Source of the DNA: a virus
Taxonomy: Duplodnaviria; Heunggongvirae; Uroviricota; Caudoviricetes
Length of the DNA: 50,275 nucleotides
Reading direction: 5' to 3' (one strand)
Virus record (IMG/VR): IMGVR_UViG_2974540528_000001
Location: 97,169-147,443 of that record
This document shows positions 4,968 through 8,236 of the stretch, piece after piece. Below the pieces are notes generated by a model, which was not told the origin of the DNA, ran no database searches, and saw only the letters and a list, made by a program, of their open reading frames with translations. Position numbers and translations under genes: made by a program. Numbering within the stretch: the stretch's first letter is position 1; each line of letters opens with the position of its first letter.

Positions 4968-5023
4968 TAAAATGGGTTGACGTAAACTGTCAGTCCTGTG
5001 TTAAGGTTTCTTCGAAATGATGC

Positions 5024-5052
5024 TTGCATCACCCGGAGGGCCATGCTATAGT
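5024..5052 (+). promoter_or_regulatory. sigma70 promoter with extended -10 and no downstream gene
   Basis: TTGCAT-17-TATAGT with TGn. Confidence 0.65.
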
Positions 5053-5390
5053 CATTATACGCCACATCTCCTGAAGCGGGAGGATACAATCATCACCCCT
5101 GCGTGAAAGGTTGCACATCCAATTAACACACAACCTTAAGGGACTCCCCGATATGTCGATAAAACACCATTTCATAAACACATTGCCGTAACGTGTCGAT
5201 GCCATAAACATATCGCGTAAACAGGCCCCTGTTTTCTCCACATAACCACCCCCGCCCCGTGGGGAAATCAAAACATGCCCCTGCCGAAAATATCACTTGC
5301 CGAAAAATATCGTGTTCGCACTGTCTGAGGTGTTTTGGAGCATTCTCACCATCTGAGGTGCTAGACGGACAGCTCCGGGCGTCAATTATT

Positions 5391-5405
5391 TTTACGGATC
5401 TTTAC
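5391..5405 (-). promoter_or_regulatory. CpxR-consensus box
   Basis: GTAAA-GATCC-GTAAA on minus strand, 5 nt upstream of TTGACG. Confidence 0.55.
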
Positions 5406-5762
5406 AAAATATCATGGGCAAGGTCGATCCGGTCCCCGGTCCCTCGGGGCCTCTTCAGGCATGATAGTTACTTGCCGAAACTAATAATTATCAAATGTTA
5501 CAGATAGCAAGCATATGGTTTACCAGCTTAGAGCACGATTTGTCATTGACAAGCTTATATTTATATGAATTACACCATTTAACATAAAACACGTTATACG
5601 CACTGGCTAACAACACATAGCAAGCTAATAATGCCTCAATGTTACCAGTGTGACACATAGGCCAGCCTCTTCAGGTCATTACATGGTGTGACTGTTACTG
5701 TGGTGATAGTTTCATGTGTGATTATTCATGTTTCAGGGTTGTTTTGTGAATGAGATGACGAA

Positions 5763-5925
5763 TGAGAATCATTATTATTTCGATTTCGAATTCAATTTCG
5801 AAATGAGAATCATTCCGCAAATATAAATATTTTGTAAATTTATAAATAAAAGCTTGACAAGGAGAGAGAATCGTGTTTAACACACAGCTCTACTTTGAGC
5901 ATTTCCCCAATGATAATCATTCCCA
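5763..5925. promoter_or_regulatory. Three Fur-box-like sites
   Basis: TGAGAATCATTATTA 5763, TGAGAATCATTCCGC 5804, TGATAATCATTCCCA 5911 versus the 7-1-7 consensus TGATAAT-N-ATTATCA. Confidence 0.6.
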
Positions 5926-6008
5926 TCAACCCCGTTACGGACCGGATACCCGGCAATGCTAAAGCATTGAAATAGTTACAATAAGTAACTATTTTCTTTA
6001 TTGCTACG

Positions 6009-6021
6009 CAAGGGATTGATA
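6009..6021 (-). promoter_or_regulatory. IHF-consensus site
   Basis: TATCAATCCCTTG matches WATCAANNNNTTR, with an upstream AT tract. Confidence 0.4.
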
Positions 6022-6184
6022 GATATTTTCGATAATAAAAACACTTGACAGTTTACACTTTTTCCATGCTCAAAATCAGGCCTTTCCATAGGCCATAGGC
6101 CCACATTAGCAAGTGATTTATTGCTATTTGTCAACCATTAAATTTCATTTAATCACATAATAATAACGGGGTGTTACCATCACC

Positions 6185-6390
6185 AGCGACACAATAACAC
6201 GAGGGCGATCAACGATAGTTGATCGGTGTTATCGTGGCGATGTGATAAAGTTCCATTGCTAATCATTACAGATGTAATGATAATACACTGTAATAATTTC
6301 GTCCTTGATCGTAGCGTCTACGAGCCACGATAACGCGAACGAGAATGCGATTTGTTCGCATTTGAGTTACCCTCGTGTTATTGTGTCGCT
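6185..6390. other. Multi-branched structured element (ncRNA or DNA cruciform)
   Basis: Perfect 21-bp outer inverted repeat enclosing an 11-bp stem and four hairpins. Confidence 0.8.
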
Positions 6391-6489
6391 CGCTACGCTC
6401 GCGCCACTCCCCACGATTACGCGAACGATTTTTATTTGACAAGATTTTATTTTTATGCTCAATAAAACCAGTTCACACAATAGGTTAGA

Positions 6490-6521
6490 TGATAAAAGTT
6501 ATCATTTGAGAGTGATTCCCA
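6490..6521. promoter_or_regulatory. Two adjacent Fur-box-like sites
   Basis: TGATAAAAGTTATCA and TGAGAGTGATTCCCA. Confidence 0.5.
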
Positions 6522-6633
6522 CACTATGCATACATAATGCTTAAAAATGCATGTTTTATTCAGTTAATAACATGCGTTATTAATTGTTGGGGTTGTTAGG
6601 TAGGGCCATACCCTTTTAAGCGCAATATGCGCC

Positions 6634-6697
6634 ATTCTGAGAGGCTTTATCTCTTACCCTGGCTAGTGGGTTACCGCCTGGAGATCTCGATTATGCA
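6634..6697. repeat. GAGATCTC module, copy A (partial)
   Basis: ATTCT..AG..ACCCTGG..AGTG..GAGATCTCG aligns with copies at 8447 and 11805. Confidence 0.65.
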
Positions 6698-6750
6698 GGT
6701 TTTAGTCACCTATCACTTTTTGATTATTGATTGATAAAACCTAACATATA

Positions 6751-6778
6751 AAAACACAAAAGCCGGGAGTTGCCCGGC
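6751..6778 (-). terminator. Rho-independent terminator ending the minus-strand early block
   Basis: GCCGGG/CCCGGC stem followed by a T-rich tract on the minus strand. Confidence 0.75.
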
Positions 6779-6803
6779 ATTATTTTTGGGGAGTAGTGGA
6801 GCC

Positions 6804-7067
6804 TTACAGCGCGATAGCCAGCAGGCCAGCGATCAAGAAAGGGAGATCATAACGGTCTAAACGATTAAAGCGATTAAGTTTAATCAGAGTGTAAAACGTC
6901 AATTGTAAAACGTCGATCATGGTGTTAAACCCTTGCGCCATTGTTTCCGTCGTTACCAGGCAAGCCAGCCAGTTAAAACACGTATTAGACACTAAAGCAA
7001 TAAGGCAAGCCAGCAGGGTAGCGCGTAAAAGGCTTGTTTTGCTTACAGTGTAAATCATGTTTGTCAT
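6804..7067 (-). CDS. Membrane protein
   Basis: GAG RBS; hydrophobic segments. Confidence 0.7.
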   Translation of the reverse strand: MTNMIYTVSKTSLLRATLLACLIALVSNTCFNWLACLVTTETMAQGFNTMIDVLQLTFYTLIKLNRFNRLDRYDLPFLIAGLLAIAL

Positions 7068-7098
7068 TTGGTGTTACTCGTTTAATGAGGGAGGTAAA

Positions 7099-7135
7099 AG
7101 AATAACACACGAAAAAGGGCGCTGCAATAGCGCCC
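7099..7135 (-). promoter_or_regulatory. Overlapping terminator and sigma70 promoter
   Basis: GGGCGCT/AGCGCCC stem plus T5; TTGCAG-17-TATTCT with the -35 in the hairpin loop. Confidence 0.7.
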
Positions 7136-7141
7136 CGATGT

Positions 7142-7312
7142 TTAAGCTAATTCAATCTCAAATAAAACGCCCATATAGCGATCATCACCTGAAAGCGTAG
7201 TAACAATTTTCATACATTCTTCAAAGGTCCAAGCCATTGTAGACCCCTGGCGAACATAAGACACATAACCGGTTTTTGAAGTGCTTTTGATATTGTAGCG
7301 GATATTTGACAT
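7142..7312 (-). CDS. Hypothetical protein (56 aa)
   Basis: AGGTAAA RBS ahead of ATG 7312. Confidence 0.7.
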   Translation of the reverse strand: MSNIRYNIKSTSKTGYVSYVRQGSTMAWTFEECMKIVTTLSGDDRYMGVLFEIELA

Positions 7313-7362
7313 TTTATTTACCTTCGGTTTTGCGGGTTGGTTATCTTCCCGCTCTGAAATAA

Positions 7363-7402
7363 ATAATAGTCGAAAACATCTGGCGAGGCAAGCGTTTTGC
7401 CT
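7363..7402 (-). promoter_or_regulatory. sigma70 promoter with inverted repeat over the -35
   Basis: TTGCCT-17-TATTAT; AGGCAA-5-TTGCCT. Confidence 0.65.
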
Positions 7403-7415
7403 TTTCTTTACAACC

Positions 7416-7628
7416 TCATTCACTGATTAGTTTAAATTCAGCCTCAGGGTGATAAAGGTCGGCCATATAGCGCTTTTTGTAATAGAAAGATACTTCCACA
7501 ATGTGGGGCGCTTCGATTTCTATTTGTGTGATAGTCACTAAACCAGGTTTAAAGCCTGGTGCAATGTCCGGTAACTCAATAACCATTCCGCCTTTTAATT
7601 CCTTCGCTTTTACAGTTCTCATGATCAT
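7416..7628 (-). CDS. Hypothetical protein
   Basis: Coupled to the upstream gene; AAAGGT RBS. Confidence 0.7.
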   Translation of the reverse strand: MIMRTVKAKELKGGMVIELPDIAPGFKPGLVTITQIEIEAPHIVEVSFYYKKRYMADLYHPEAEFKLISE

Positions 7629-7858
7629 TAACCTTTTTTGCGTTTAATTACTTTTATTACTTTAAGGCCCTTTTGTTCTAAAAACTCCGGGCGGCGCAAT
7701 TGTGCGGCGCTGCTACGGCTTTTCACCTTGTTAGACAACACACCATAATAGCGCCCGTCCTCATACTGCCCGATGAAATAAAAATCATTTACGCCGTATT
7801 CCTCATCTCCTGCCTTCTGGATGATTTCGGCTAATTTGTCAACACTAATATTAATCAT
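7628..7858 (-). CDS. Hypothetical protein
   Basis: AGGTAAA RBS and upstream hairpin. Confidence 0.75.
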   Translation of the reverse strand: MINISVDKLAEIIQKAGDEEYGVNDFYFIGQYEDGRYYGVLSNKVKSRSSAAQLRRPEFLEQKGLKVIKVIKRKKG

Positions 7859-7906
7859 AATTGCTTTACCTCAAAGGATAGCGGGGCGGCTAGCGCCCCG
7901 GATTGG

Positions 7907-8236
7907 TTATTTGTTAAGCTCTTTATATTCAGCAATCCAGCGGGTAAAAATCTTATGTTGCTTTTCTGCCGCCGCTTTTGTTCTATGTGAGATAGCGGTG
8001 ATATACCAACAATCCGCAAGGCACCAACCGGAAGAATGAAAAATCCAAGGATAATTTGAATCCGCCGCTTTAAGTTTCACGATCTTCTCTTCTGGTTCAC
8101 TATGTGTGAAGGCTTCGATCTCGTTTGCCGTGTACTGGCGATCTTGCCGCTTGATACGGTTTCCGAAATGATCAAAAGTGTAATTGTGTGATTCCAGGTG
8201 ATTATCCAGCATCTTAAAGAATTCTGATTTAGTCAT
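7907..8236 (-). CDS. Hypothetical protein
   Basis: AGGTAAA RBS; own promoter. Confidence 0.8.
   Translation of the reverse strand: MTKSEFFKMLDNHLESHNYTFDHFGNRIKRQDRQYTANEIEAFTHSEPEEKIVKLKAADSNYPWIFHSSGWCLADCWYITAISHRTKAAAEKQHKIFTRWIAEYKELNK

Follow-up and report, generated by a model that had tools for sequence, protein, structure and literature searches.

A conserved self-pairing non-coding element beside the terminal repeat of rV5-like phages, a candidate signal for genome-end maturation

The genome of a Klebsiella phage of the genus Mydovirus (Vequintavirinae, rV5-like myoviruses; closest record 98% identical) contains, just outside its terminal repeat, a non-coding stretch of ~205 bases that is able to pair with itself into four helices and that recurs in related genera. 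It occupies positions 6185-6390 of the window, by which we mean the whole 50,275 nucleotides of DNA analysed. We tentatively read this element as a cis signal for genome-end maturation, which may act in the copying of the terminal repeat or in recognition by the terminase, and we place the chance that this reading is correct somewhat below even. Folding in vivo, a protein that reads the fold, and a role in end maturation rather than in the initiation of replication are all points that we infer. The element appears to be undescribed, with no description found in the literature searched.

Position beside the terminal repeat and gene context

The most informative context of the element is the terminal repeat 308 bp away. 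The 514-bp repeat_region annotated in phage DP aligns end to end with window positions 5364-5877, and the 514-bp direct terminal repeat of phage KPP-1, which was determined by two-fold coverage and PhageTerm in a phage with T7-type packaging (PMC9862379), maps to the same place by its match coordinates; the repeat boundaries in the window are set by homology to these two phages only. The outer stem of the element (P1) starts that distance past the right repeat boundary, in unique DNA, which puts the element 821-1026 bp away from one physical terminus of the virion DNA. In all 17 genomes checked (Mydovirus, Seunavirus, and Vequintavirus), P1 follows to the right of the repeat homologue after a gap of 200-404 bp, and at least four genera (Mydovirus, Seunavirus, Henunavirus, and Vequintavirus) show the link between the element and the genome end. 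A location that stays constant next to a short, exact terminal repeat points towards a role in genome-end biology. The features of the region, in window coordinates, are as follows.

5364-5877, no strand: direct terminal repeat homologue of 514 bp (the physical genome ends), placed by homology to DP and KPP-1
6185-6205 paired with 6370-6390, no strand: P1, outer stem, 21 of 21 pairs Watson-Crick
6206-6225 (6206-6213 paired with 6218-6225), no strand: P2, hairpin with an 8-bp stem (8 of 8 pairs) and a 4-nt loop
6226-6238 paired with 6324-6336, no strand: P3, stem of 13 pairs, 12 Watson-Crick and one G.T
6239-6323, no strand: core inside P3, 85 nt, with two small hairpins (6262-6281 and 6309-6323)
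6338-6368, no strand: P4, hairpin taken from the minimum-free-energy fold and the relatives
6363-6369, no strand: linker TGAGTTA after P4, invariant
6389-6410, no strand: GC-rich block holding CTCGCTACGCTCG (6389-6401), nearly invariant across genera
6411-6428, plus strand: second direct motif copy CCACGATTACGCGAACGA, kept in all genera including the Erwinia phage
6431-6600, no strand: conserved non-coding block, alignable in distant genera
6564-6583, no strand: operator-like palindrome TTAATAAC-ATGC-GTTATTAA, conserved across genera
6762-6778, both strands: two-way terminator that closes the leftward gene block

The element sits in 1.15 kb of gene-free DNA that separates two converging gene blocks, and small, unannotated minus-strand genes adjoin it. 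No Pfam family was found for the nine neighbouring ORFs, and their PHROG families are of unknown function, except for one labelled exonuclease. The gene that comes first beyond the gene-free region has 87 codons (6804-7067, minus strand; phrog_17242, function unknown) and is preceded in every case by a terminator; this holds for Mydovirus, several Seunavirus records, Henunavirus, and Vequintavirus. A first-pass annotation of this DNA had claimed that the element contains no ORF, and indeed no reading frame is conserved across it, while relatives differ by indels of arbitrary length; the element is not a gene. Several GenBank records call short ‘hypothetical proteins’ across it (for example Iguana_ER37, GEC_vB_MG gp201-204, and 4MG_201). 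The records disagree with each other on these calls, the indel pattern gives them no support, and they are probably spurious. The GC and AT skew of the whole genome tracks gene orientation only and gives no origin signal.

Several smaller features were observed at the repeat boundary. The right boundary (5873-5882) is a mini-palindrome, TGTT-T-AACA, which differs by one compensated pair from that of the Vequintavirus phage Gotham, TGTC-T-GACA (L052 455-464). The half-sites of the Gotham boundary are the same as the sequences at the outer ends of its P1 arms (GACA.../...TGTC), and TGACATAAT, a 9-mer, occurs in Gotham after both the boundary (460) and the P1 start (658); all of these are short motifs, and the matches may be due to chance. 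A 121-bp segment just outside the repeat (5880-6000) is replaced by 54 other bases in contigs of relatives, one from a DNA run and one from an RNA run (joint 5879/6001), and, judging from the contigs, the end of the repeat is also the place of a mosaic boundary. The motif ACAGCTC, which is located just inside both repeat boundaries of the window, was dropped as a candidate since it is not conserved in DP. No dif (XerCD) site was found in the window within three mismatches.

Anatomy and stability of the fold

P1 closes a four-way junction of P2, P3 (around the A+T-rich core), and P4. The helices had been proposed in the first-pass annotation from the sequence alone, and all of them were confirmed to pair exactly: the perfect 21-bp outer stem, the hairpin that is now P2, the two core hairpins (6262-69/6274-81 with 8/8 pairs and 6309-14/6318-23 with 6/6 pairs), and the stem 6228-38/6324-34 (11/11 pairs), which is the inner portion of P3. 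A further hairpin proposed at 6335-40/6354-59 also pairs fully (6/6), but the minimum-free-energy fold and the relatives choose P4 instead. Several of the helices were said to abut without a linker, which is the case at the P1/P2 and P2/P3 joins, with a gap of one base between P3 and P4. The 5' arm of P3 (6226-6238) is an inverted copy of the GCCACGATAAC motif, and its 3' arm (6324-6336) overlaps the first direct copy of CCACGATAACGCGAACGA (6325-6342). The core enclosed by these arms is 66% A+T compared to 55.6% for the window.

The plus strand folded as RNA reaches -109.1 kcal/mol compared to -63.8 +/- 4.3 kcal/mol for 200 shuffles (z = -10.5), and the minus strand folded as DNA gives z = -8.3; no shuffle folded as well in either case, and the concern that shuffled sequences might fold equally well can be set aside. 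Among perfect inverted repeats with arms of at least 16 bp separated by up to 400 bp, P1 is the sole one in the whole 147,443-bp genome. Because its arms are 164 nt apart, extrusion of the complete fold from relaxed duplex DNA is unlikely, while in a single-stranded state of the region the fold would form readily.

Conservation and covariation among relatives

A sensitive search identified the element in 63 phage records, which belong to Mydovirus and Seunavirus (PVP-SE1, 4MG, GAP31, and others), with a part-match in Henunavirus. In the distant genera, alignable DNA starts exactly at P1 and runs to at least ~6593, in some of them to 6656, and the stretch from the repeat to P1 is unalignable between genera. 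A pattern scan of metagenomes returned 25 matches, most of which were chance matches to an 18-mer, and the element was recovered only in L036, L040, L042, L045, L030, and L051. A scan of 185,579 prokaryote species gave four matches, all bare seed matches at the chance rate. A MITE or other mobile palindromic element was also considered and rejected, as the element is single-copy, was recovered in no unrelated genome in these scans, and occupies the same syntenic position in all phages.

The same four helices were obtained by folding in all 17 homologues first compared, and RNAalifold recovered P1-P4 with 57 pairs from an alignment of 24 sequences, in which 11 of the 57 pairs show changes on both sides with pairing kept. 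When the sequences were compared by anchoring on the arms, P1 was an uninterrupted stem of 18-22 bp in 21/24, and the remaining three stems were each broken by a single A.C mismatch or a bulge of one base. Compensation was observed at eight or more positions of P1, and not one G.T occurs in ~480 P1 pairs, although several of the changes are transitions. Covariation across related phages had been named in the first-pass annotation as a check on the structure, and these compensatory changes bear it out. In the Erwinia phage pEp_SNUABM_01 and the IMG/VR contig L026, the sequence of P1 is wholly different and still forms a perfect stem of 21-22 bp, and the remaining parts (P2, P3, P4, TGAGTTA, the GC-rich block, and the second copy of the motif) are retained.

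The stem sequence of P2 differs by lineage with pairing kept, and six pairs of P4 have changed on both sides, likewise with pairing kept. Twelve of the 13 pairs of P3 are identical in 24/24 sequences (the thirteenth is U-G in 22 and C-G in two), as are the 18-mer 6325-6342, the TGAGTTA linker, and most of the GC-rich block. By these comparisons, P1, P2, and P4 are selected for pairing rather than for sequence, and P3, TGAGTTA, and the GC-rich block are selected for sequence; the invariance of the latter suggests recognition by a protein. Template switching or gene conversion could in principle also keep inverted repeats perfect, with no need for selection on individual pairs. The conservation of architecture and position amid diverged flanks argues for selection instead.

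Among relatives, the length of the core ranges from 73 to 144 nt, and G+C-rich hairpins are inserted in particular lineages. Hairpin cassettes rich in G+C were observed in the P4 loop of L002 (3644-3700), L005, and L016, and in the P3 core of L017 and L004/L012. The P4 loop of Mydo, NDO71, and SalP219 holds a ~50-nt double-hairpin insertion, and this cassette, common to two Mydovirus phages and one Seunavirus phage, suggests recombinational exchange or a miniature mobile insert. The SalP219 record (L016 position 1, the last base of PP595732.1) ends at the third base of a 21-bp P1 arm, which is the first base of the conserved GACAC core. This record end probably reflects a break in assembly at the inverted repeat and not a terminus that was mapped.

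Phage Gotham, with an annotated repeat of 459 bp (1-459), has a sequence-divergent counterpart of the element and shares the gene-free kilobase, the terminator, the 87-codon last gene, and the flanking gene order. Its P1 (659-676/793-810) is a perfect stem of 18 bp located 200 bases past the repeat (z = -8.1), which encloses hairpins and is followed by a GC hairpin, and an exact 20-nt direct repeat flanks the fold. The Gotham-type version was found in 120 phage records.

Motif copies and the downstream block

The 18-mer CCACGAT(A/T)ACGCGAACGA, which had been reported to occur twice, was found at 6325 and 6411. The arms of P1 and P3 are related to it (GACACAATAACAC compared to GCCACGATAACAC), so that the pattern CAC[GA]AT[AT]AC[AG]C occurs six times in the genome, with five copies within 6190-6422. 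These copies start at 6188, 6226, 6324, 6375, and 6411, three of them direct and two inverted, and their spacing is irregular. The shorter pattern [AG]ATAAC[AG] has seven copies in 6150-6620 where 0.35 are expected, a 20-fold enrichment. Within the conserved non-coding block, both arms of the palindrome at 6564-6583 change jointly to TTGATAAC...GTTATCAA in relatives. This palindrome has the same ATAAC core as the arms of P1 and P3.

Two further motifs were observed in the region. A composite of TTGACA, 13 to 15 nt, and ATGCTCAA(A/T)A occurs at 6046-6077 and 6437-6466, with a spacing that misfits a sigma-70 promoter; the copy at 6437-6466 is conserved in Mydovirus and Seunavirus and is absent from the aligned Erwinia and L026 flanks. 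A Chi-like octamer with one mismatch, GCTGGTGA (6180-6187, minus strand), abuts P1 in the orientation that faces RecBCD arriving from the nearby end, and it is not conserved in Seunavirus. No strong IHF site was found in the element.

Possible functions of the element

If the element is a signal for genome-end maturation, it could address a problem inherent in short terminal repeats. In phages with such repeats, each concatemer junction holds one shared repeat copy, and the second copy is regenerated at maturation (PMC5923468). In head-to-tail concatemers of this phage, neighbouring genomes would share one 514-bp repeat, and each packaged genome would need a second copy. The element would fold when the region becomes single-stranded by nicking, strand displacement, or incomplete replication of the end. 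The invariant sequences in P3, the linker, and the GC-rich block may then let a protein of the phage, the terminase or else an enzyme that nicks or primes, recognize the fold, and such recognition may initiate synthesis across the repeat or determine where the terminase cuts.

The closest parallel is found in phage T7, in which an imperfect 19-nt inverted repeat is centred 190 bp to the left of the right terminal repeat, in unique DNA like the element described here. We take this inverted repeat to be the site of the ‘hairpin end’ intermediate of T7; Chung, Nardone and Hinkle reportedly described this intermediate in 1990 and proposed hairpin-primed copying of the repeat. The T7-like replisome of rV5-type phages, as well as the short, exact direct terminal repeat and T7-type packaging (in KPP-1) that recall T7 and T3, extend the parallel. 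Of the features of a T7-type junction, short direct terminal repeats and fixed-end packaging are present by homology only (DP, KPP-1, and the 459 bp of Gotham), and an inverted repeat is located in unique DNA near the repeat (308 bp here, 200-404 bp in 17 genomes, and 190 bp in T7). However, the T7 site is a single imperfect hairpin of 19 nt, whereas the element is a 205-nt fold of four helices that also has invariant sequence blocks and additional copies of the motif. The two are not similar in sequence, and the role of the element is assigned by analogy. A T7-like scheme would also presuppose that the element lies on the fitting side of the repeat relative to the direction of packaging.

The main rival to end maturation is an origin of DNA replication, in which copies of the motif (RATAACRC) would flank a melting A+T-rich core and the hairpins would help to load a T7-gp4-like primase-helicase; we consider this unlikely, though it deserves to be weighed. 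The clustering of five of the six genomic motif copies, the 20-fold enrichment of [AG]ATAAC[AG] in 6150-6620, and the enclosure of the 66% A+T core by the invariant P3 arms all speak for it, and repeated motifs around an A+T-rich core fit an origin just as well as end maturation. In this reading, the element would resemble palindromic herpesvirus oriS/oriL or iteron origins such as lambda ori, as well as the end-proximal T7 replication promoters phiOL/phiOR. Like herpes simplex oriS/oriL and lambda ori, the element has inverted motif copies that flank an A+T-rich centre, and hairpins are possible, but unlike them it has no identified initiator gene, its outer stem is kept as pairing, and its core tolerates large insertions.

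The details fit an origin less well. With three direct and two inverted copies at 6188, 6226, 6324, 6375, and 6411, the motifs are not regularly phased, and the A+T-rich core is variable in length (73-144 nt) and tolerates inserted hairpins rich in G+C. What is preserved in P1 is the stem and not a motif, its sequence being replaced in Henunavirus. No DnaA boxes were found in the element, with up to one mismatch or with a relaxed consensus, and no initiator-like gene was found among the nine neighbouring ORFs, none of which has a Pfam family. The site is also located between converging gene blocks, where GC skew only follows transcription. For rV5-like phages in general, the origin and the packaging signals are undefined and the replisome is T7-like, with Pol A and a gp4-type helicase; the authors of the rV5 study sought an origin by skew and found none, as skew followed gene orientation (PMC3606486). 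The origin and end-maturation readings would overlap if initiation near the end copies the repeat, as proposed for T7 phiOL/phiOR.

A structured non-coding RNA of ~250 nt transcribed from the region, one version of which is a packaging RNA like the phi29 pRNA, is improbable. Covarying stems with invariant junction nucleotides and variable peripheral insertions are typical of structured RNAs, the fold is very stable, and in Mydovirus and Seunavirus a hairpin followed by a T-run is located at 6403-6440. However, the T-run is missing in the Erwinia phage and Gotham. The first-pass annotation had claimed that the element folds on either strand, and both strands do fold approximately equally, with similar small G.U counts, in 25/25 sequences, as is expected of a DNA palindrome. 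An RNA reading also has to accommodate the complete lack of G.U in P1 despite transitions, and a perfect 21-bp RNA helix would be a substrate of RNase III. The absence of a clean promoter had likewise been asserted, and a promoter scan of 5996-6185, just upstream of P1, found no sigma-70-type site, while in PVP-SE1 a terminator-like hairpin is located immediately upstream of P1. The Rfam search that had been suggested (Rfam 15, cmscan, window 5000-8000, E up to 1) did not assign the element to any family and gave one chance-level match outside it. Assembled metatranscriptome contigs cover 5329-5879, 6001-6060, and 6563-6827, but not the element, and are uninformative on transcription or molecule ends.

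The element was compared more closely with phi29 pRNA (RF00044), which is alike in having a branched fold of ~170-250 nt and in being encoded beside the genome end. It differs from pRNA in giving no covariance-model match and showing no strand bias, and these phages have a canonical large terminase, for which a pRNA is not evidently needed. That a branched RNA of ~250 nt would serve the machinery that packages the genome or processes its ends in a myovirus whose terminase is canonical, in parallel with but unrelated to the phi29 pRNA, is more doubtful still; if true, such an RNA would be a new class of phage RNA.

Overall, an RNA is probably not the product of this region, and a DNA-level signal is favoured on the grounds of strand-equal folding, the lack of G.T in P1, the lack of an Rfam match, and the lack of a conserved promoter or terminator. 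The first-pass annotation had left both options standing, a single-stranded DNA or cruciform signal (for priming, injection stop, or end processing) and an undescribed structured RNA. Its DNA option appears to fit best, with end processing as the function, as the element lies beside the genome end, while its RNA option is left without conserved promoter or terminator, strand bias, or Rfam match.

The first-pass annotation also stated that CGAGCGTAGCGAG, the complement of 6389-6401, occurs in ColE1-type plasmids, and this proved to be exact: the 13-mer occurs once in ColE1 (1331-1343), between the Rop gene and the presumed origin and beside GAAGCGGAA. It raises the possibility of a PriA/n'-pas or primase-type single-strand initiation signal, in which the folded strand would recruit a primosome for synthesis of the complementary strand. 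The structure would form only in single-stranded DNA, and replication of linear DNA leaves 3' tails at the ends that have to be primed, both of which suit such a signal. The proposed primosome link is nevertheless not supported, as the identity to the n'-pas of ColE1/pBR322 stops at 13 nt, the AAGCGG that follows the 13-mer in ColE1 is absent from 5364-6800, and the 13-mer is not part of the main fold and differs between relatives (A or C at one position, and CG to TG in one contig). By arithmetic, a genome of 147 kb and ColE1 should have ~29 13-mers in common by chance alone, although the local E-value of the match is 0.006. A primase-helicase of the gp4 type is encoded by the phage itself (PMC3606486). 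To our knowledge, enzymes of this type do not act at PriA sites. We treat the ColE1 match as a probable coincidence of a GC-rich repeat (CGCTCGC twice), not as membership in n'-pas/ssiA, and consider a priming signal very unlikely.

The most remote of the readings is an entry-pause signal like the injection-stop region (iss) of T5, in which ejection would halt ~0.8-1 kb in from the leading end, held by the fold or by a protein bound to it: the element lies at a suitable distance from one physical end (821-1026 bp), beside small unannotated minus-strand genes, and shares with T5 iss its conservation, lack of genes, high density of repeats and palindromes, and closeness to a genome end, but it is outside the 514-bp repeat, has no DnaA box (at one mismatch or less, or with a relaxed consensus), and belongs to phages for which two-step transfer is not reported, whereas T5 iss is inside a ~10-kb terminal repeat and is defined by eight DnaA boxes, with a debated mechanism (Davison, bioRxiv 10.1101/866236).

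Implications for rV5-like phages

The regeneration of terminal repeats and the way in which terminases find genome ends are known in outline only for T7/T3, and not for large myoviruses. The rV5-like phages are among those most often isolated from Escherichia, Klebsiella, and Salmonella and are candidates for therapy, and the element is the best-conserved non-coding feature beside their genome ends. If it is an essential cis site, as a genome-end maturation signal may be, it would matter for the engineering of these phages as well as for their annotation, in which several records call probably spurious genes across it.
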